Of a DNA stretch of 64,000 nucleotides, positions 7,779-61,007 are shown piece after piece (within the stretch, counting starts at the first letter, position 1; each line of letters begins with the position of its first letter). Origin of the DNA: a virus. Taxonomy: Duplodnaviria > Caudoviricetes. The stretch lies in IMG/VR virus record IMGVR_UViG_3300032335_000777, positions 45,984-109,983 of that record. One strand, 5' to 3'. A program made the translations under genes and the position numbers. The notes beneath the pieces are model-generated. The model made no database searches and was not told where the DNA came from. It saw only the letters and a program-made list of their open reading frames with translations.

Positions 7779-10337
7779 TTACATGGTTCTAATAATTTTT
7801 TTAACTTCCTCTGAAATATTCGGAGATTGAAGATACAACTGTTTTACCTTTTCATCAGTAAGATTCCCTATAAAATTCATTCCCTCAGTTGCATCTACTG
7901 GCTGTTGAGGCTGTAATGGATAAACTATTCCATTAGGAAGCTTTAATCTAAAAGTCAAATATTGCTTTTCTGGAGATCCTAATGAGTGCTTCATATCAGC
8001 TCTAACATTCATATTAACTCTAGGCATATATTGACCTTGGAAATAAGCATTTTCAAAACTTCCAGTGGGATTTGTATTTCTTCCACCCATAGATTGCGCT
8101 TCTATTAGTCTTCTTAATTGAGGGCTTGGAGAATCTTTATCAATTATTGGAAGCTGTTGTGCTTCTCTTGGATCTAAAGGTATAACAACTTCTTCATCTC
8201 CTTTGAGAATAATTAGAGAAGTTTGATCACCTTGTTCAAGTTTCTTATATTGAAGATTTGATTTATCAGAAGAATCAAACCACTGCAACACTTCTCTCGC
8301 TCTGCTACTAGAAAGTCCTTCATATCCTCCTTCCATTCCAGATAAAGAAGTATCTGCTACTTTTCTCAATAATGATGTGGATATATTTTCCCAAGTACTT
8401 CTTGCAATATTACCTTCTCCCGTTCCAAATATAATTGGAACTTCTCTAGGGATGTATTGAATAGTTTTATCACTAATTTTTTTCTCTATAAGAGAATTAT
8501 ATTGACCGTTATAATCTGATGTTGCTCTTCTATAAGGTGCAAAATATCCTCTTAACATTGCTTTATTGTCATACATTATCTTCTCTCTTTCTGAAAGAGG
8601 AGATAATATTTCTGTTTCTACTTTTTGACCACCAGTAGCACCTGTTCCAGATACCTGACCGCCTGTTACAGTTTCTTTTACTTTTGTTAAATACTGCGCC
8701 ACTTCAAAAGGAGTGAAGAAATATTCTCTTCCTTTTATAGTTACATTTAAAGCACCAACTTCTTTAAGCTGATTACCATATTCATTTTTAATCTGTTGAA
8801 GTTCTGGAGAATTTGCAGCTTCTTCCTCAACAGTTTTTAAGAATTGTTCTTTTCTACTCAAATCACCTTTAGCAGTGATTACTGAATTTGCTAAGTCTTT
8901 CAAATCATTAGGTATAAGAGACTCATACGCAGAGACATCTCCTTTTCTATAAGCCTCCAATGCATTCAATACTTGGATTTTTTGCACCTTTGTTCCTCCT
9001 CCAGCATTTAATGCATCCACTAGTTGATTAACTTGATCTTCAACTACTCCACTTGCACTTTCAACATCTTTCAAAAGAGCAACTCTTTGATTGGGAACGT
9101 TTGTACTTTTTCCACCATATACTTGAAATCCACCAGGTACACCAAACATTTTTGCATTTGCCTCGTCAAGTTTTAACTGATAATCTCGATCATCTTTAAA
9201 TTGACTCCAAGAAAATTTATCTTGTTCAAGTGCAAGATTTGCTTGTGATAAATTGAACCTTTTAGCTTCCCACTCATCTTGTCTTATAGGATTTGTCAAA
9301 AGATTATTCTTTTGATTTTCCCAAGCATTTGAACTAGCAAACTGTTCTATTGCTCCATTTTTATAAATAATTCCCTTTGCTTCTTCTGGATTTGCTTTAA
9401 TGAATTCTATCTCTTCATTCATCTCTGCGGTTAATGTTTTATTCACTGCTTGCAAAGATTTTATTCCTTGTTCAGCTTTAACGTATTTATCAGGATCAGA
9501 TTCATACATCTTTAGAGCACCTTGAAGCTCTATAATAGTTTTATTATTCTGTGCTATTGCAGATGCAGTTTTTGCTGTAGCTAATGTAGCAAGTTGTTCA
9601 GGATCAGTTATATTTCTAAACTGATATCTACCATTAATATTTAATTGTTCTAACTCATCAGGAGAAAGACTAGCTCTTAATGCATTTTGAATCTTTTCAG
9701 CACTAACGCCTTCCTTACTAATTCTTTGCATTGCTTGTGCTGTTGCACCAACATTGAGCGTACCATCTTGATTGTATTCATATGGGATGTCTTCTTCCAA
9801 AAGATCTGAGTGTAGAGTCTTCATGACTTCTAGCCACTTCTTATCTACATCAATATACTTTCTATATCTACCACTAAAGTTTGCGCCTAAATTAGGATCG
9901 TTCAACCAATCACTTGACTGTCTTGAAAAGTCATATTCATTTTGAATAGCAGACTCGCCTTTTTGTCTGGATTCTTCCATGAACTTTTGTTCTTTTCTGT
10001 ATGCAGCAGTTGCTTGTACAGAAGATAATACATTAGAATCTTTGGCAACACTACCAGCCATCCCTGCTACAGAATTGACTAATTGATAATTGGAGAAGTC
10101 AGCAGCTGCAACAGTCTTTAACTTAGAGCCAAGTTCATTAAGCTTTGATTGTAAATACTGTCTATCTACATCACGAGCAATATCTAATCCTGCGACTTGA
10201 TCTATCTGAGATTGGATCTTTTGCAATCCTTGGTCGTAACGCTGTTGCTTCTCCATACCAACTCTAACCATAGCCTCAACAGGAAGCTGTTGAATATATG
10301 GGTTAAACTGTGGTATTGCATCTGTAAATGAAGCCAT
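7779..10337 (-). CDS. Putative virion cargo/ejection protein
   Basis: 852 aa, helical, N-terminal FNPYIQQLP; directly upstream of the RNAP gene as in crAss-like cargo blocks. Confidence 0.6.
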   Translation of the reverse strand: MASFTDAIPQFNPYIQQLPVEAMVRVGMEKQQRYDQGLQKIQSQIDQVAGLDIARDVDRQYLQSKLNELGSKLKTVAAADFSNYQLVNSVAGMAGSVAKDSNVLSSVQATAAYRKEQKFMEESRQKGESAIQNEYDFSRQSSDWLNDPNLGANFSGRYRKYIDVDKKWLEVMKTLHSDLLEEDIPYEYNQDGTLNVGATAQAMQRISKEGVSAEKIQNALRASLSPDELEQLNINGRYQFRNITDPEQLATLATAKTASAIAQNNKTIIELQGALKMYESDPDKYVKAEQGIKSLQAVNKTLTAEMNEEIEFIKANPEEAKGIIYKNGAIEQFASSNAWENQKNNLLTNPIRQDEWEAKRFNLSQANLALEQDKFSWSQFKDDRDYQLKLDEANAKMFGVPGGFQVYGGKSTNVPNQRVALLKDVESASGVVEDQVNQLVDALNAGGGTKVQKIQVLNALEAYRKGDVSAYESLIPNDLKDLANSVITAKGDLSRKEQFLKTVEEEAANSPELQQIKNEYGNQLKEVGALNVTIKGREYFFTPFEVAQYLTKVKETVTGGQVSGTGATGGQKVETEILSPLSEREKIMYDNKAMLRGYFAPYRRATSDYNGQYNSLIEKKISDKTIQYIPREVPIIFGTGEGNIARSTWENISTSLLRKVADTSLSGMEGGYEGLSSSRAREVLQWFDSSDKSNLQYKKLEQGDQTSLIILKGDEEVVIPLDPREAQQLPIIDKDSPSPQLRRLIEAQSMGGRNTNPTGSFENAYFQGQYMPRVNMNVRADMKHSLGSPEKQYLTFRLKLPNGIVYPLQPQQPVDATEGMNFIGNLTDEKVKQLYLQSPNISEEVKKIIRTM

Positions 10338-16760: not shown

Positions 16761-17627
16761 TTACTTGTAACTTATTTGTGCTGCTCCAATAATGAATTGT
16801 GAAACTAAATGAGCATCTGATTTATTATCAAGAATGTGTCTGATTTTCAATTCTTTAGCTCTGAGAGGTTCTTTCTTAAATGATCTTGATCCATAGTCCA
16901 TGTTGATTTGATTCACTTCTTTATCAAGAGAAAGTGATTGACATGTTCTGACAAAGAGTGGTATGCTCTTGTCCTTCACTACAGACCAGAATGTATTGTA
17001 CTGATAGAAGTTATCACTCTTGGTAAATGTAATAGTCTTGCTTTCAGCATTTAATATAGGATATTGTAAGTAGGATTTCAAATTGTTTATTGGTTTTGGC
17101 ACAAGCTCAAGCACACCTGTTGATTGTTGTCCATTGTAAAGAACAGCTTTATTAAACCATGCATTGTCAAGTTCTATTCTTGATACATCATTTGACACAC
17201 CATAAGGATCACTAAAGTATTTGTACACCTTGGTATAGTCTTTTACATTCTGAAGAATCTCATCTTGGTATTGATATGCAAAAGGATATTCAATAATATA
17301 TGGTTCTATGTTTCCGTAGAATATATTATATATTGTATGGTTATTAAGATGTCTCCATACACAAGCTGTCTGAATAGTTTCTAAAGGAGTATTTTGATAT
17401 TGATTTTCTGTAATGGTAGTGACAGGGAATGATTTTTGGTACGCACACTTTCCTTCAGATGTAATTGTAATCAAATCAACACTATCATCTACAATGAAAC
17501 TAATGCCTGTAGTCACTTGTGAAAGTGTTACACCAGAGGCAATAACATTCCCAAACGCATCTGTGATGGTGAAAGGCCCTGCGTTAGGGCCTGTCTTTGT
17601 TAGCTTTATAGTGATTGTCTTTGACAT
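16761..17627 (-). CDS. C-terminal part of tail stabilization/muzzle protein with a small N-terminal beta domain
   Basis: VWRH..YNIFYG..PYIIEY and FNKAVLYNGQQSTG resemble the C-terminal region of crAss-like stabilization proteins. Confidence 0.6.
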   Translation of the reverse strand: MSKTITIKLTKTGPNAGPFTITDAFGNVIASGVTLSQVTTGISFIVDDSVDLITITSEGKCAYQKSFPVTTITENQYQNTPLETIQTACVWRHLNNHTIYNIFYGNIEPYIIEYPFAYQYQDEILQNVKDYTKVYKYFSDPYGVSNDVSRIELDNAWFNKAVLYNGQQSTGVLELVPKPINNLKSYLQYPILNAESKTITFTKSDNFYQYNTFWSVVKDKSIPLFVRTCQSLSLDKEVNQINMDYGSRSFKKEPLRAKELKIRHILDNKSDAHLVSQFIIGAAQISYK

Positions 17628-23974: not shown

Positions 23975-24454
23975 TTAATTACGATTCCATGTTGCATAAA
24001 TATGTTGGTACTTCTCGTCAACTTTCAAATAGTGGTTAATCAATCTAGAGTTTTGTCTTGTTGGTTTGAATAGCCACAAATCAGAAAACTTAAATCTACA
24101 AGATCTTTTAAACCACTTCCATCCAAAGTAATAACCTTCTGTATGGTAGTTGAAGTTGTAAATGTACTTTCCCTTCTCTCTAGTTTTTTTCCAGTCGATT
24201 GGAAGATTTATATACTCTTTACCATCAACTATTGTGGTTCTCACTCTTTTCTTTTTGTTGATTGCAAAGTCTCCTATTCCACATGGGAGTTTCACCTTCT
24301 CCCCTGTTTCAAGCATGTGTTCAACAAACATCTCATTGAAACCATAAACAACTCTCTTCCAGTCATCGAAAGAGAGGTTTATTTCAGGTTTCTCACTCTT
24401 GAAATTATTGTAGTTTTCTTTTGAGGCACTTCGCCAATCTATTGGTACTCTCAT
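23975..24454 (-). CDS. IHF/HU-like DNA-binding protein
   Basis: GEKVKLPCGIGDFAINKK HU-like core plus IDWKKT..IYNFNYHT extension typical of the crAss-like tail-block IHF gene. Confidence 0.7.
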   Translation of the reverse strand: MRVPIDWRSASKENYNNFKSEKPEINLSFDDWKRVVYGFNEMFVEHMLETGEKVKLPCGIGDFAINKKKRVRTTIVDGKEYINLPIDWKKTREKGKYIYNFNYHTEGYYFGWKWFKRSCRFKFSDLWLFKPTRQNSRLINHYLKVDEKYQHIYATWNRN

Positions 24455-25179
24455 CTAAATTGTGGTGAGTTTGGTGATTGACCATCTATTCCATCATCAG
24501 TCATGTCAGTCTTCAGATTGAAATAGCTCTGTAGAAGCTTCTGTGAGGTTAGATCTAGCACTTGCTTCTCCAAGTATCCTGGAAGAGCAAACTCTTTATC
24601 TAAAGGGTTCTGACAAAGCTGGTCAGTCGTATAACTTGGAGTTCCACATCCACATTCAGGGTACATAATATCGTTAGGTACGTCTTCTTCAAATAAAGCT
24701 ACGAATCTAACAGCCTGTAATGCTGGATTGTTGACATAAAGATAACCATTTGAAATCCAGAAATACAGTTGATTTTTAATAACAGGAAGTTTTAATAGAT
24801 TAAGATAACGATTGACAGTGATCTCTTTTATCTTGGTGCCTTGTCCAGACATTGCGTTTATTGAATAAACACCTTGAATAACATATTGATAATTTCCTTC
24901 AGATATTCTAGGAAGTTGATATGTTGATCTTGCAACAGAACAAGGATCTGCATAATTACAGCATTCTGAGATGGGCACCTCACACATTTCCAAGCATGGA
25001 ATTGTCGTGAAAAGTGTATCTGTTGCCCAGAGTTTTCTAAGATTGGTTTCTCTTTTTATCAACAATAGTGCATTATTCCGCACTTCAGAGGCAATTGCTC
25101 TGTCTGTGATAAGACTATCTGTTGATATGATTTTGTGCGTGCTCCTAACGTCAGAGACTAGCTTTCTTAATGTTGACAT
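24451..25179 (-). CDS. Tail ring protein
   Basis: Start probably ATG 25179 (MSTLRKLVSDVRS); IPCLEM, LPRI, YFWISNGYLY motifs; synteny. Confidence 0.6.
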   Translation of the reverse strand: MSTLRKLVSDVRSTHKIISTDSLITDRAIASEVRNNALLLIKRETNLRKLWATDTLFTTIPCLEMCEVPISECCNYADPCSVARSTYQLPRISEGNYQYVIQGVYSINAMSGQGTKIKEITVNRYLNLLKLPVIKNQLYFWISNGYLYVNNPALQAVRFVALFEEDVPNDIMYPECGCGTPSYTTDQLCQNPLDKEFALPGYLEKQVLDLTSQKLLQSYFNLKTDMTDDGIDGQSPNSPQFR

Positions 25180-25235
25180 CTTGTGTTGCTGATTTTCAGA
25201 GTTATATGTACTCAAATTTAATCATTTTTCCAAAT

Positions 25236-25265
25236 AAAAACTCCCAGACATTAAATGCCTGGGAG
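25236..25265 (-). terminator. Intrinsic terminator
   Basis: CUCCCAGGCAU/AUGUCUGGGAG stem followed by UUUUU on the minus strand. Confidence 0.8.
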
Positions 25266-25295
25266 AAACTCTACAAAACCAATAAAGTAGAGTTT
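25266..25295 (-). ncRNA. Hairpin presenting UUUAUUGGUUUU loop (candidate 3'-UTR sRNA seed)
   Basis: Perfect 9-bp stem AAACUCUAC/GUAGAGUUU directly 5' of the terminator. Confidence 0.4.
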
Positions 25296-25343
25296 ATTTG
25301 AATTTAGTTTATAGATACACACAAACTTTTAATTTATGTGTTA

Positions 25344-25859
25344 CTAGCAAGAAGTTGCTGCACTTAACACTCCTCCACTTGATACTGTCCACTTAGTGCT
25401 CAAATTGGTTATGTAAATATATCCACTATAAGTAGTTGTCAAACCACTGTTGGTATATAAAACTACACCATTTGCTAGTACAGGAACAGATGTATACAAT
25501 ATAGGTAGTAGTATAGCTGACGTACATGGATTTGCAATATTTGCCAGTCCTCCTAAATACCAAGAATAAAATCCAGGTCTTGAAGTTGTTGTACTAGTTG
25601 TACTGGTTGTTGGACCAGCTGATGTACTGGTTGTGGTTGTTGTAGGTGGTGTTGGAGAAATCTGTGCTTCTATAATAGCAATTGCATTATCAATCTTCTG
25701 TAATGCAACTGTGAGATTATCACAGCTTTGTATTCCTGTTCCTGCTAGGTTTGGTCCTATATATTTTACATTTTCAGAAGAAACAAATTCACAATGGTCA
25801 CCGCTGCAACCACATGGACCTAAAGATCCGCATCCTGGGCAATTAGTATTAAATGGCAT
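25344..25859 (-). CDS. Short fibre/adhesin-like virion protein with Cys-rich N-terminus and Thr linker
   Basis: N-terminal Y.G.N....GI...D.L..AL..ID domain shared with 25864..27000; poly-Thr linker; small beta C-terminal domain. Confidence 0.55.
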   Translation of the reverse strand: MPFNTNCPGCGSLGPCGCSGDHCEFVSSENVKYIGPNLAGTGIQSCDNLTVALQKIDNAIAIIEAQISPTPPTTTTTSTSAGPTTSTTSTTTSRPGFYSWYLGGLANIANPCTSAILLPILYTSVPVLANGVVLYTNSGLTTTYSGYIYITNLSTKWTVSSGGVLSAATSC

Positions 25860-25863
25860 AGTT

Positions 25864-27000
25864 TTATGGAATATACATTATGTAATATGCACCTATTGTA
25901 GGCTGGATGTTATTGTGTGATAGACCACCACCTGTTACATCAACAACTACACTAGTACTGGTAGTAACAACTACTGTTGCATTGCTAGTTGGCCCTCTAT
26001 CAGCAGTTCCTACTGTTTGTTTAAGATTGTAAGAGTAGTTATCGCCTGCATCAAACAAAGTATCAAGAGTCTGTGTATCTAAATCTCCAGCTTGTGCACC
26101 ACTCTTAGCAATGAAGTGACTGTGAGGAGTAGCTGTTGATGTAGATGTACCTGTAGCTGTGTGCGTGTGCGAAGGAATTTGATTTGTTGTTAAAGTGACA
26201 TTGTTCGCACCTGCTAAACCATTCAATGAATAGCTCGGATTACCTGGTGTAGATGGATTGACAATTGAACTCATTGTTATTGTACCAGCCATAGTTCCAT
26301 CTGTAGTTCCTACAGCAACACGTCCTCTCTTGTCTGGTGTACCATTGCTACCATTACACAAATATACGTTTGCAAACAAACCAGAGCCTGCTCCTGTAAT
26401 ATCAAAGCCTGTAATAGGACCATAGTATTCATACGCAATGTATGGTACCATTTTGTTTCTGTACAAATTAGATGGAGCAATACTGTTTAAATATGCTTGA
26501 ATAAGCGCATTTAAGTCGGCCAGTTTAACATAGTTTGTATCAACATCAAGCTCTAGTGCTGTTAGATCAGCAGCTGTTGAGCACAGCTTATTAATAGCTG
26601 CTTGGAGAATGTCGTGTGTATCAGAAGATGCTGTTACACCTGTAAGACATCCAATTGTGTAATTGGCATTAAGGGTGGTGAGTGTTGACTCAATTGCTGT
26701 AACACTGGTTTTTAAAGCGCAAATTGATTTTATCAGTGCTGAGATGACATTATTAAGTGTAATGGTACCAGACCCTGGAAGAAACCCACTCACCAATGGG
26801 CAGAGATCAGCTGGATTAATGACAGGAATAACCCCATTACCAGTAGACAAATTTATAATGAATGTTGAAATTTGTAATTCAACACTAGCAAGTGTATCAC
26901 CATTGGAAATACCCAAGGCAGGAATATTAAATCCTGTATATCTTACGCACTGATCAGATATGATTTCTGTGCATCCGTTAAAGCAATTAGAGCAGCTCAT
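25864..27000 (-). CDS. Tail fibre/needle protein with phage tail collar domain
   Basis: LCNGSNGTPDKRGRVAVG, VTLTTNQIPSHTH, GGGLSHNNIQP..YYIM collar/tip motifs. Confidence 0.75.
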   Translation of the reverse strand: MSCSNCFNGCTEIISDQCVRYTGFNIPALGISNGDTLASVELQISTFIINLSTGNGVIPVINPADLCPLVSGFLPGSGTITLNNVISALIKSICALKTSVTAIESTLTTLNANYTIGCLTGVTASSDTHDILQAAINKLCSTAADLTALELDVDTNYVKLADLNALIQAYLNSIAPSNLYRNKMVPYIAYEYYGPITGFDITGAGSGLFANVYLCNGSNGTPDKRGRVAVGTTDGTMAGTITMSSIVNPSTPGNPSYSLNGLAGANNVTLTTNQIPSHTHTATGTSTSTATPHSHFIAKSGAQAGDLDTQTLDTLFDAGDNYSYNLKQTVGTADRGPTSNATVVVTTSTSVVVDVTGGGLSHNNIQPTIGAYYIMYIP

Positions 27001-30967: not shown

Positions 30968-31000
30968 TACGTAGTTATTTGATTATTATTGGTTTGTTTG

Positions 31001-31045
31001 CAGAGTGCACCAATCAAATGGCTAGGCTCACTGACCCACACTCTG
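31001..31045 (-). ncRNA. Mini tRNA-like three-way junction lacking an anticodon arm
   Basis: CAGAGUGU/GCACUCUG closing stem, GGGU-CAGUGA-GCCU hairpin and GCCA-UUUGAU-UGGU T-arm-like hairpin. Confidence 0.4.
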
Positions 31046-31057
31046 TTTTAAAGAGGA

Positions 31058-31097
31058 ATAAAACTCCCCTCATGATTAACACGAGGGGAGATTTTAT
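31058..31097 (-). terminator. Intrinsic terminator after the MCP
   Basis: CUCCCCUC/GAGGGGAG stem followed by UUUUAUU. Confidence 0.8.
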
Positions 31098-31098
31098 A

Positions 31099-32652
31099 TT
31101 AGAACTGTGGAATTTCTTCGATGAGAACAGTTCGTGACAAGTCTTCAATGAATACATCGCAACGATCTTGCATCCAGATTTCATAGCCTGGGAATTTGTT
31201 GGCAGAAGACATACCCTGAGACTTAGCAAAGCCTAAGTGGTGTCTACGTCCATCGATATAACCCCAAGTCATAGAAGGAGCACCCTTCATACGTACTTCA
31301 CGAATGTTGTTAACCATAGAGCCATCAGACATTGGAGATACGTCAAATACCATGAACACAGGAGTGGATTTCTTGTTCTGACCAAATTCCAAGTTGGACT
31401 GAGGAAGATCAAGTTCTTTCAAGTGGATAAGTTCAACACGACCAGTCTCACGAGTTACCATTGCATCGAATGCAAAGTTGTAAGTGATGTGCTGTCCTTC
31501 TCCTTGCATATATCTGTTTCCAGAATCTGCCATGAAAGTAAGACCAGAGTTCAAAGCATCTGCTTTAAGAGCCTGCTGGAACACATCGAAGCCAGCTTCG
31601 TTAGTGTACATTTTAACTCTTCTATCCTTAACATCTACACGTCTGTAGAACAAGTCTCCAAATACGGAACGGATAAGGTTTGCGGAGAATTCTCCACGGT
31701 TGTATTGTACCAAGTTACCATTGTTACGCATTCTGTGGTAAACACCAGCAGACACACGCTTCAATTCTTGCTTAGATCCATTAGTTTTTACAGTGCCTGG
31801 CTTAGACCAGATCATTCGCTTCACCTTAAGTTCAAGCATTGCTTTTCTCAACATGAATTCTACGAATGGCTCCCACTTAACATCATTACGAGTTAAAGGA
31901 AGTTGGTTTCTACGCTGAGGAGCGTACACCAAAATATCAAGAGGTTTGCCAGAAGCATCACGCATAGTCTTATCATCAGCCCATGCAGTAACTTGGTGCT
32001 CAAAACCATATCCAGAACCAAGAGATTCGAACATAGTGATTTTCTCACCAAGTCTTGGTAAACCAAGAAGGTCCTGATCAAATTCACCAATTGCAGCATC
32101 AACTAGTTCTAGTTCGATACCAATTTGCAAGAAGGTAGAGCTTACGAAATCCAAGATTGGGTTATCAGACACCAATGTGAAAGTGTAAAGGAAACCTGCA
32201 TTCCAAGGAACTGGGTCTTTTACAGCGTACCATCTTGGACCATACTGACGAGAACCTACAGAAACGATAGCGTTCTTAGAGAATTCGTTAGTGTCCAATA
32301 CCACCTGAAACTCCTGACCATCAATACCTGGCTTGCTCAACTCAGCAGTGGAGCTAGGGATGTCGATGATTTTAGGGAATTTGTAAGGAACTTGAACATC
32401 CCACTTCCAAGAATCGCTGTTGTTGTCGATGTAGTAGGGAGTGGACTTGTTGATCATATCAAGGAAGTCATTGCTATACAATGAGCTCTGAGTGTACAAG
32501 GAGATAATCTTCTTGTCGTAGTCAGCTGGCTCAGTGGAGTGGAATGATTCCAAGTGATTTGAATCAGTTAGCTTTCCTACTGCACGCTTGTCCATTGACG
32601 CAACACGGGCATAGGTAAAGCCAGTTAAACCTGGGATTGTTTGAATTGCCAT
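31099..32652 (-). CDS. Major capsid protein
   Basis: 517 aa; LTDSNHL N-terminus, WKWDV, GAPSMTWGYIDG, MSSANKFPGY; strong codon bias, terminator, portal-scaffold-MCP synteny. Confidence 0.85.
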   Translation of the reverse strand: MAIQTIPGLTGFTYARVASMDKRAVGKLTDSNHLESFHSTEPADYDKKIISLYTQSSLYSNDFLDMINKSTPYYIDNNSDSWKWDVQVPYKFPKIIDIPSSTAELSKPGIDGQEFQVVLDTNEFSKNAIVSVGSRQYGPRWYAVKDPVPWNAGFLYTFTLVSDNPILDFVSSTFLQIGIELELVDAAIGEFDQDLLGLPRLGEKITMFESLGSGYGFEHQVTAWADDKTMRDASGKPLDILVYAPQRRNQLPLTRNDVKWEPFVEFMLRKAMLELKVKRMIWSKPGTVKTNGSKQELKRVSAGVYHRMRNNGNLVQYNRGEFSANLIRSVFGDLFYRRVDVKDRRVKMYTNEAGFDVFQQALKADALNSGLTFMADSGNRYMQGEGQHITYNFAFDAMVTRETGRVELIHLKELDLPQSNLEFGQNKKSTPVFMVFDVSPMSDGSMVNNIREVRMKGAPSMTWGYIDGRRHHLGFAKSQGMSSANKFPGYEIWMQDRCDVFIEDLSRTVLIEEIPQF

Positions 32653-33913: not shown

Positions 33914-34046
33914 ATATGTAGTTAATTATTTGATTGGTTTATATGATATAAATGTACTTTCGTTTGTAAAATAATCAAATATAGAATAATCAAAATTGTT
34001 GTATTTTTGACACGTATAGCATTAATGTTAATTTTTCCATATTTTA

Positions 34047-39704: not shown

Positions 39705-40044
39705 TTATCTTATTCATTAGTATTTTACGCTTCAACAACATCTGATCAATATCATCATTCCACTTCTCCGTTTTCACATCACTATCAGAGCTGGAAATCC
39801 TATCCCTAAAACTCCTAATCTTCTCATCTAGAACATCAAGCTTTTTCTGGGCAGCTCTATCATTCCATTTTAATGTGCCCCATCCAGAAATCTCCACTGT
39901 CTTATTCTTCTGTAGAGCTGCCAGCACACTATCAAACTGATGTCGTATTATTTGATCAACAATCCTCACATCCATTTCTAGGGACTCAGCAAGCCTTCTA
40001 ACAAACCAATCCCTATGGGACATTGAATTAGGCTTTTCCTTCAT
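39631..40044 (-). CDS. HU/IHF-like protein with coiled-coil tail
   Basis: LAESL...VDQII..F......KTVEISGWGTL matches the HU fold pattern. Confidence 0.65.
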   Translation of the reverse strand: MKEKPNSMSHRDWFVRRLAESLEMDVRIVDQIIRHQFDSVLAALQKNKTVEISGWGTLKWNDRAAQKKLDVLDEKIRSFRDRISSSDSDVKTEKWNDDIDQMLLKRKILMNKINELNTDLRRLEKQSTSRRKTKGTD

Positions 40045-40375: not shown

Positions 40376-40393
40376 TTCCTTATTGGTTTCTAA

Positions 40394-40426
40394 CAAATAT
40401 AAAACATCCTCAACGAAAATAACAAA
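40394..40426 (-). promoter_or_regulatory. Bacteroidota housekeeping-sigma promoter at the head of the structural block
   Basis: -33 TTTG (40423-40426), 21-nt spacer, -7 TATATTTG (40394-40401). Confidence 0.75.
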
Positions 40427-42432: not shown

Positions 42433-42716
42433 GAACGTTTAAAGATTTATTATTCAATACAGTGGACGATCGTAGTAATTGGATTCGTGCATTTATGAAG
42501 TTTGACAATGGATATGGTGTATCTGTTGTTCAGGGTCCTTTCAGTTATGGAGGTAAAGTAGGATTGTATGAACTTGCTGTCTTAGATGCTGATGGTGATG
42601 TATGTTATGACACACCCATCACTGATAATGTAATAGGCTTTCTTAAGCCTGAAGATGTCACTAAGCACATGATTGATATTCAAGAATTACCAAATTTAAA
42701 CACACAAACCAAATGA
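42429..42716 (+). CDS. Conserved phage hypothetical protein
   Basis: FDNGYGVSV..SYGG..GLYELAVL..YDTPITDNVIGFL pattern common in phage early regions. Confidence 0.7.
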   Translation: MRTFKDLLFNTVDDRSNWIRAFMKFDNGYGVSVVQGPFSYGGKVGLYELAVLDADGDVCYDTPITDNVIGFLKPEDVTKHMIDIQELPNLNTQTK

Positions 42717-45147: not shown

Positions 45148-45251
45148 AGTCAGGTGGTGGAATGAAGACACACATTGGAACTGCTTGTAAAAGTAATGGC
45201 ACATTGAGATAACCTTAGATGTGCGTACAGGTTCGAATCCTGTCCTGACTA
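45148..45251 (+). tRNA. tRNA-Leu-like RNA with aberrant anticodon arm (pseudo-tRNA or mimic)
   Basis: Acceptor AGUCAGG/CCUGACU-A, U8G9, D-arm GUG/CAC, T-arm ACAGG-UUCGAAU-CCUGU, 26-nt variable arm; no 7-nt anticodon loop; no encoded CCA. Confidence 0.75.
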
Positions 45252-45270
45252 CACACTAAAAACAAAACAC

Positions 45271-47518: not shown

Positions 47519-47728
47519 ATGGAATTAAAAAGTTTGAATTCTGTACTAATTGAATATGCATACTATTTAAAGGATGACATAATTGATAATGATAAGTCTA
47601 TCAGTGATTTAAAACCTGAAGATAGTGTCAAGATGTTTTTGAATAACTGGAAGAAAAGAATGGAAGAAAAAATACAGAAAGAACTTGAAGCTGATAAAAA
47701 AATAAAAGAAAAAATAACTAAATCGTAA
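47519..47728 (+). CDS. Hypothetical protein
   Basis: 69 aa. Confidence 0.55.
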   Translation: MELKSLNSVLIEYAYYLKDDIIDNDKSISDLKPEDSVKMFLNNWKKRMEEKIQKELEADKKIKEKITKS

Positions 47729-47758
47729 AACCAATAGTAATGGTGTATAATCAAACAT

Positions 47759-60990: not shown

Positions 60991-61007
60991 AAAACCAAAA
61001 CAAAACT

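Follow-up and report, generated by a model that had tools for sequence, protein, structure and literature searches.

The hairpin and terminator at the end of the fibre-like module

The stretch analysed here, referred to as the window, comprises the last 64 kb of an IMG/VR phage record of 109,983 bp (genome G000). On its minus strand, the 171-aa gene at 25344..25859 (from the ORF list) is the last gene of a variable fibre-like module; its neighbour at 25864-27000 (minus strand) matches tail-fibre PHROGs. Downstream lies the gene for a 242-aa virion structural protein (24451..25179, minus strand; phrog_9863). The 131-nt intergenic minus-strand RNA is predicted to form three hairpins, with a fold z of -5.9. 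The first of these, an 11-bp hairpin with an AAA loop just past the stop codon of the upstream gene (25317..25341, minus strand, from the fold), was found only in loci sharing the 171-aa upstream gene, which are the nearest relatives. The second, hairpin 1 (25266..25295, minus strand, from sequence and fold), has a perfect 9-bp stem made of the 5′ arm AAACUCUAC (25295-25287) and the 3′ arm GUAGAGUUU (25274-25266), and presents the 12-nt loop UUUAUUGGUUUU (25286-25275). The third is an intrinsic terminator that follows hairpin 1 without a gap (25232..25265, minus strand, from the terminator scan and fold). Its 11-bp stem CUCCCAGGCAU/AUGUCUGGGAG contains 6 G-C pairs, closes on a UUA loop (25265-25241), covaries in relatives and is followed by the U-tract UUUUUAUUU. 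The perfect 9-bp late-strand hairpin directly before a terminator, as reported in a first-pass annotation of this DNA, is thus borne out by sequence, fold and terminator scan.

The element lies in the 3′UTR of the 171-aa gene and ends at that mRNA's own terminator, as 3′UTR-derived sRNAs do. Hairpin 1 begins 48 nt past the stop codon here and ~5-15 nt past it in most relatives, which leaves no room there for a promoter of its own and agrees with the 3′UTR origin that had been claimed. The spacing between hairpin and terminator was 0-3 nt in all loci examined. The leader of the downstream 242-aa gene carries a -7-like box, TAAATTTG (25220-25213), and is conserved in relatives.

The phage is crAss-like. 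A giant 4825-aa ORF, the candidate for the giant virion RNA polymerase gene of the crAss-like layout, runs across the window start; the MCP and PolB genes were identified; and over the whole genome the late virion genes and the replication module lie on opposite strands. The virion genes form a long leftward block on the minus strand, with the MCP among them (31099-32652, PHROG matches), and a rightward replication block on the plus strand holds a family-B DNA polymerase (phrog_1252). Among 50,697 cultured or deposited phage records the MCP matches a single one, a Leptolyngbya cyanophage at 26% identity, and the 322-aa protein encoded after the MCP has >3,300 metagenomic homologues, so this phage group is abundant but uncultured.

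For leader analyses we used our own simple gene calls over the whole genome (longest-ORF rule, ATG starts only), which yielded 111 genes. SD-like words are rare, occurring in 7 of the 111 leaders here and in 1 of 156 in the relative G004. The word TAnnTTTG is the -7 type box of Bacteroidota. Boxes of this type were seen before several late genes (25213-25220, directly after the terminator studied here, 40394-40401 and ~33961-33968); they are merely ~2-fold enriched upstream of genes. A Bacteroidota host, presumed in the first-pass annotation, is possible in view of the SD-poor leaders and these boxes; the closest cultured-phage MCP is that of the cyanophage mentioned above. Sequences resembling a tRNA T-arm were also seen, GGTTCGAATCC at window ~45180-45270 (plus strand) and GGGAGTTCAAATCTCTCC at ~9880-9960 of the metagenome contig L391, between the MCP and post-MCP genes; a scan of the window by ARAGORN gave no tRNA.

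Conservation of the loop and covariation of the stem

The element is widespread among relatives of this phage. It is kept upstream of the 242-aa gene in 74 of the 80 loci retrieved with the 242-aa protein, and it was found in 34 loci retrieved with the 322-aa protein, a sample unbiased by the loop sequence. A pattern scan of IMG/VR gave at least 119 contigs with the element, and among the 80 matches listed ~73 are genuine. A covariance model finds one strong copy (53-88 bits) in each of 11 element-holding genomes or large contigs and nothing else above 25 bits in them. This single copy per genome rules out a repeat or mobile element. No Rfam family matches, the best scores being 9-21 bits against gathering scores of 55-376.

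Across these loci the loop takes the form UUU(A/G)UUGGUUUU, its 12 nt invariant apart from A or G at position 4, with two exceptions: a 13-nt form with one more U and one lineage with UUGUUGGUUU. The stems, by comparison, are highly diverse, for example AAACUCUAC/GUAGAGUUU, AAACCUUGU/ACAAGGUUU, AAGCCCUG/CAGGGCUU and GUCUCG/CGAGAC. In an alignment of the hairpin (A1), 7 of 9 pairs changed on both sides and 90.7% of cells were paired, compared with 27-54% in slid controls. None of 500 shuffles reached the observed number of paired cells, the number of double-change cells or the covariation score; for the two pair and type counts, the observed values were reached by 35 and 103 of 500 shuffles. 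An alignment of both helices (A2) had 14 of 18 pairs changed on both sides and 95.8% of cells paired (slid controls 38-56%), and no shuffle of 500 reached the observed values. The first-pass annotation had asked for loop conservation with stem covariation in relatives, and the loci provide it: a single-stranded, invariant loop sits between variable flanks that preserve the structure, as expected of a seed. Both helices contain many G-U pairs, which would be A-C mismatches on the opposite strand, and the U-tract is on the minus strand, so the structure is that of the sense RNA of the late genes.

Otherwise near-identical phages carry extra or different fibre-like genes ahead of the element (25296-27000, comparing L002-L071), and the block of hairpin, terminator and downstream leader is kept while the fibre module swaps. 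Similarity breaks off immediately before the hairpin, so the element lies at the border of an exchangeable fibre module. A recombination linker conserved merely as DNA is ruled out, since the stems vary with compensation and the loop does not. We conclude from the alignments that a conserved structured RNA is encoded at the 3′ end of the predicted late fibre-module transcript.

A complement of the loop in gene leaders

The loop core has exact complements upstream of a number of phage genes. In the whole genome, AAACCAA occurs in 11 of 111 leaders (-40 to -1) and its extension AAACCAAT in 7. The motif positions claimed in the first-pass annotation were all confirmed in the sequence; they lie 0-24 nt upstream of an ATG, and the four AAACCAAT sites among them (30988-95, 33933-40 and 40382-89 on the minus strand, 47728-35 on the plus strand) all precede ATGs. 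The gene labels given with them fared unevenly: polB (phrog_1252) and the rIIB-like gene stood, and the names "scaffold" (the 411-aa gene) and "wHTH" (the 115-aa gene) found no family support.

On the late strand, AAACCAAU lies 21 nt before the ATG of the 322-aa post-MCP gene (30988..30995, minus strand), where 10 contiguous nt (AAACCAAUAA) are complementary to the loop and the site is single-stranded in the predicted fold. The same word is found 20 nt before the ATG of the 411-aa pre-MCP gene, 8 nt past a TAnnTTTA box (33933..33940, minus strand), and 6 nt before the ATG of a 115-aa gene, 4 nt past TATATTTG (40382..40389, minus strand). The 115-aa leader is likewise complementary to the loop over 10 nt and gives the best predicted duplex, at -11.5 kcal/mol. 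On the plus strand, the family-B DNA polymerase gene has AAAACCAAUA 22 nt ahead of its ATG (47727..47736), AAAACCAA occurs 9 nt before the ATG of the rIIB-like gene, just past a terminator (60991..60998, with AAACCAA at 60992-98), and AAACCAA adjoins the ATG of a 98-aa gene (42706..42712).

Other arrangements of these words were seen in the window. After the MCP gene come a strong terminator (31090-31064), a second long hairpin and then the single-stranded AAACCAAU leader (30996-31090, minus strand). In the mRNA of the 115-aa and 137-aa genes, AUUGGUUUGUU, the same word as the loop core, stands just past a small hairpin (40003-40021, minus strand), ~370 nt downstream of the AAACCAAUAA leader box of the same mRNA, so it could be a partner of that box in cis. 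A perfect 12-nt complement of the loop, AAAACCAAUAAA, lies at 17086-17097 (minus strand) within the coding region of a 288-aa gene, and the next start comes 338 nt later. G003 shares this complement, which is reduced to 9 nt in G001 and G002.

Enrichment of the motif beyond leader composition

The leaders of this genome are rich in A and C, and enrichment over that composition had been posed in advance as a check on the motif. Within the window there are 10 instances of AAACCAAT (4.3 expected) and 30 of AAACCAA (15.5 expected). Over the 110-kb genome, leaders (-40 to -1) contain AAACCAAT at 1.58/kb, compared with 0.068/kb on the sense strand of coding sequence. With conservative expectations from Markov models (order 0-3) fitted to the leaders themselves, AAACCAAU is found in 7 leaders versus 0.33-1.06 expected (p between 1e-4 and 6e-8), far above what composition would give. 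Genomes with A at the variable loop position (A-loop genomes) have AAACCAAU in 7-8 leaders each, versus 0.3-1.1 expected from leader composition. Ranked by leader enrichment among all 65,536 8-mers, it is second in this genome and first in the close relative G003. The words AAACCAAUA/AAACCAATA occur 7 times on both strands of the whole genome, in 5 leaders, 1 CDS and the loop itself, and the 6 non-loop AAACCAAUA words are all in sense RNA.

Plain counts of complementarity were dropped as evidence, as real and shuffled U-rich loops match the A-rich leaders over an unrestricted 7-8 nt with equal frequency. The informative matches are those containing the CC core, and no others. Counted in this way, the real loop word matches 12 leaders, and the 659 rearrangements of its letters average 2.7. 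With matches of 8 nt the figures are 9 leaders and a mean of 1.3, with 0.5% of arrangements as good, and the only arrangements that equal the loop word are those keeping the ...AUUGGUUU... core. This control is weak in genomes with G at the variable loop position (G-loop genomes), where 5-20% of arrangements do as well. A predicted duplex energy of <= -7 kcal/mol was reached by 13.5% of initiation regions versus 6.2% of coding windows, a modest difference of ~2-fold. Taken together, the complementarity between the candidate seed and conserved initiation-region sites of several mRNAs exceeds what composition explains.

Conservation of the motif and its variation with the loop

The same orthologues carry the motif in both clades, namely the 322-aa post-MCP, 411-aa pre-MCP, 338-aa, 99-aa and 83-aa genes, and the motif stands as a conserved island in leaders whose surrounding sequence, and sometimes spacing, differs between the clades. 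The 322-aa orthologue has an exact AAACCAA in ~57 of 60 distinct leaders with diverged flanks, the other three having AAAACCAC, and the 411-aa orthologue has it in 27 of 27 distinct leaders, 6-10 nt past the box. The sites before the polB, rIIB-like, 115-aa, 159-aa and 209-aa genes vary between genomes; that of polB, for example, is present in G000 and G003 and absent from G001 and G002. In the contig L391, whose 322-aa homologue is 62% identical, the motif precedes both the 322-aa and the 411-aa genes, and the contig ends before the expected position of the element. Other distant homologues of the 322-aa protein exist, but scans of IMG/VR and metagenomes with distant queries yielded no usable sequence downstream of that gene apart from L391. 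G006 has AAACCAAT leaders without the element on a contig that covers 27% of a genome. We also observed that in many relatives (L047, L060-L068, L119, G002 at 68779 and G003 at 70357) the fibre gene's stop codon is followed by UAAAACCAAU, ~10-30 nt ahead of the hairpin, so that their 3′UTR contains both the motif and its complement. This upstream UAAAACCAAU is absent in the window and in most of the distant relatives.

The sole variable loop position, position 4 (A/G), faces the eighth base of AAACCAAN, which allows loop and leaders to be compared across clades. In A-loop genomes the eighth base is U in 30 sites, C in 1, A in 12 and G in 1, and in G-loop genomes it is U in 9, C in 10, A in 20 and G in 4, counts that are not phylogenetically independent and that come from one variable position in few independent lineages. 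The word AAACCAAC is enriched in G-loop genomes only (3 observed vs 0.2-0.5 expected), and AAACCAAU in A-loop genomes only. In the leaders of the 338-aa and 99-aa genes, U changes to C together with the change of the loop from A to G. Perfect 12-nt complements located 1 nt before an ATG carry their clade's own base, U in G001 and G003 (AAAACCAAUAAA) and C in G004 (AAAACCAACAAA). G-loop genomes more often add a fourth A (AAAACCAA), which keeps an 8-bp duplex, and their commonest eighth base, A, is a mismatch. A further exception is the distant type G010/L120, which has an A-loop but AAACCAAA and AAACCAAC sites. The pattern is suggestive of loop and leader motif changing together, in a partial way, with exceptions and in few independent lineages.

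A candidate antisense RNA and the alternatives to it

In our best explanation, the hairpin, placed where the fibre mRNA ends, would act as an antisense RNA that pairs with leaders of the phage's own genes, and we see an even chance that this is correct. Late in infection, transcripts with this 3′ end would accumulate, or else a stable fragment of ~65-80 nt that is cleaved from their 3′ end and contains both hairpins. The loop core UUGGUUU(U), which includes a YUNR-type UUGG, would pair with AAACCAA(U/C) located 0-30 nt upstream of the start codons of about ten phage genes, roughly a tenth of all genes. The targets would be both early (polB, the rIIB-like gene and small ORFs) and late (the genes flanking the MCP). 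The target mRNAs have short A-rich leaders without SD sequences. A duplex of 8-12 bp there would occlude the ribosome landing site or the mRNA 5′ end, and the outcome would be tuned translation or stability across a phage-wide gene set. We infer the accumulation of the RNA, its pairing and the direction of its effect, whether repression or activation, from sequence comparison. As a regulatory RNA encoded by the phage, the element is a good candidate, though an unproven one. The distance of 20-24 nt between several sites and the ATG, which puts them at the margin of a ribosome footprint, counts against this mechanism, as do the perfect 12-nt complement inside a coding region and the modest enrichment by duplex energy. 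The widest form of the proposal, in which the single loop of the fibre transcript is a master riboregulator of about ten early and late genes throughout a large uncultured crAss-like clade, with loop and leaders co-drifting, is possible but somewhat doubtful.

A serious alternative, though rather unlikely in our estimate, is that the hairpin is instead a protein-binding or 3′-end structure, that the AAACCAA leader motif has an unrelated job of its own, and that their complementarity is coincidental. Under such an arrangement a phage or host RNA-binding protein would stabilise the 3′ end, modulate the adjacent terminator or control the neighbouring structural operon, and the leader motif would be an A/C-rich translation enhancer or a signal of the 5′ end or initial transcribed region of host-RNAP promoters. 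Hairpins recognised by proteins are also marked by an invariant loop on a covarying stem, and the constant fusion of this hairpin to a terminator, with 0-3 nt between, would suit such a role. The leader motif of the 411-aa and 115-aa genes comes 4-10 nt past a TAnnTTT(G/A) box, at the predicted transcript start, and would therefore lie at the extreme 5′ end of these mRNAs; with the motif right after a -7-like box in these two leaders, it might be a promoter-proximal or 5′-end signal. Most motif sites, however, have no -7 box at a fixed distance. The general A/C-richness of the leaders, in which AAACAAAA is also a top 8-mer, and the mostly mismatched eighth base in G-loop genomes likewise favour two unrelated signals. 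Against them, the conserved 7-nt leader core exactly complements the invariant core of the loop, leader enrichment places AAACCAAU first or second among 65,536 8-mers, no rearrangement of the loop letters matches the leaders as well unless it retains this core, and the U/C preference at the eighth base tracks the A or G of the loop. Given these ranks, and allowing for the look-elsewhere effect of the many hairpins scanned, exact complementarity as a coincidence is unlikely but not negligible.

Pairing could also take place in cis, with the 3′-terminal loop contacting AAACCAA leaders within the same long late transcript and so joining the mRNA ends, which would couple translation or protect the mRNA rather than produce a diffusible small RNA. 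We consider this quite improbable. Three minus-strand sites of the window (40382, 33933 and 30988) are upstream of the element on the same strand, and the UAAAACCAAU found in many relatives lies ~25 nt upstream of the hairpin in the same 3′UTR; but the window and most distant relatives have no such nearby complement, a strong terminator behind the MCP gene stands between the upstream sites and the element, and about half of the motif-bearing leaders, including those of the early polB, rIIB-like and 99-aa genes, are on the opposite strand or far off. Very improbable, in our view, is a signal at the DNA level, in which a DNA-binding protein would recognise AAACCAAT(AA), or the word would belong to a hairpin-type promoter of the virion RNA polymerase, the copy in the hairpin being such a site in inverted orientation. 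A change in the specificity of one protein would move all sites, including the loop, and would thereby explain the clade-wise U/C versus A/G. The virion RNA polymerase gp66 of the crAss-like phage phi14:2 works in vitro only on a single-stranded or denatured DNA template, and no common upstream motif was detected for its early transcripts (10.1101/2020.03.07.982082). However, the plus-strand copy would fire into the antisense of the fibre gene, and all other sites have one orientation relative to genes, before early and late genes alike. This strand bias, and the G-U pairs in both helices, which together with the U-tract point to selection on the late-strand RNA, lead us to disfavour a DNA-level signal. 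A promoter reading of the motif was not adopted either, as TAnnTTTG lies upstream in few leaders and otherwise at no fixed distance. In phi14:2, host RNA polymerase transcribes middle and late genes, and the promoters it uses are described as -35/-10-like, without an AAACCAA-type word (10.1101/2020.03.07.982082).

Comparison with known regulatory RNAs

The proposed antisense RNA shares features with several known systems. With 3′UTR-derived sRNAs such as CpxQ, DapZ, SroC and MicL it has in common the 3′UTR position, the use of the mRNA's own intrinsic terminator and a short, conserved single-stranded seed complementary to several initiation regions. It differs from them in being encoded by a phage, with that phage's own genes as proposed targets, and in having the seed in a hairpin loop rather than at a free 5′ end. 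To our knowledge, the host lineage, if it belongs to Bacteroidota, probably has no Hfq. The c4 (immI) RNA of P1 and P7 is cut from a longer phage transcript, and its loops pair over the ribosome-binding region of a phage mRNA. It thus resembles the present element as a phage RNA that presents, in a loop, a complement to initiation regions, which for our element is proposed from sequence. However, c4 uses two loops on one operon (icd-ant), whereas a single loop would here serve about ten dispersed leaders, the two RNAs have no homology in sequence or structure, and the element has no Rfam match.

A stable stem presenting a U-rich loop with UUGG (YUNR) is also typical of RNAs of the CopA, Sok and RNA I type, and the YUNR motif is known to speed initial pairing. 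Those RNAs are cis-encoded and fully complementary to one target, whereas the RNA proposed here would be trans-encoded with a seed of 7-12 nt. The way in which one phage factor would adjust the translation of many phage mRNAs during the phage programme, by recognising a short motif in their initiation regions, recalls T4 RegA, which unlike the proposed RNA is a protein. The boxB hairpin of lambda nut and the put hairpins of HK022 are similarly phage RNA hairpins with sequence-specific loops that act next to terminators. They differ in lying downstream of promoters and in acting on RNA polymerase to suppress distant terminators, and the boxB loop is a 5-nt GNRA-like loop, whereas the 12-nt U-rich loop here adjoins the terminator that it precedes.

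The element defines a compact, covariation-supported RNA family with one copy per genome in >100 environmental contigs and with a partner motif, testable by mutation, in the leaders of replication and capsid-region genes. Few regulatory RNAs of lytic phages are known, and in the literature searched we found none described for crAss-like phages. If the proposal is true, this would be the first riboregulator described for crAss-like phages. A phage RNA whose regulon spans the genome and consists of that phage's own genes would also be a rarity, here with a host lineage in which translation starts without Shine-Dalgarno pairing. Real pairing would show how early and late translation can be coordinated where there is no SD signal to hide, and annotators would gain a marker of the boundary at which the exchangeable fibre module meets the conserved virion operon. 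Without such pairing there would still be two separately conserved signals, the loop and the AAACCAA leader box.

Other words enriched in the leaders

The leaders contain further recurrent words. A second word, AACTAC(A/G)T, is placed directly before the ATG of several late genes (322-aa, 411-aa and 338-aa), as at 30968-30976 and 33914-33923, and is kept across clades, occurring also in leaders of G004 and G005. It is among the most enriched leader 8-mers in G004 and may be a start-site context signal in these SD-less leaders. The most enriched leader 7/8-mer in G000 is ATAAATA(A), with 13 observed versus 2.6 expected, a word that recalls the T4 late-promoter word TATAAATA. In the distant clade (L142-L153, genomes G004 and G005) the top leader 8-mers are TCCTTAAT and CTCCTTAA, with 7 observed versus 0.26 expected, and these resemble the anti-SD strand rather than the SD.
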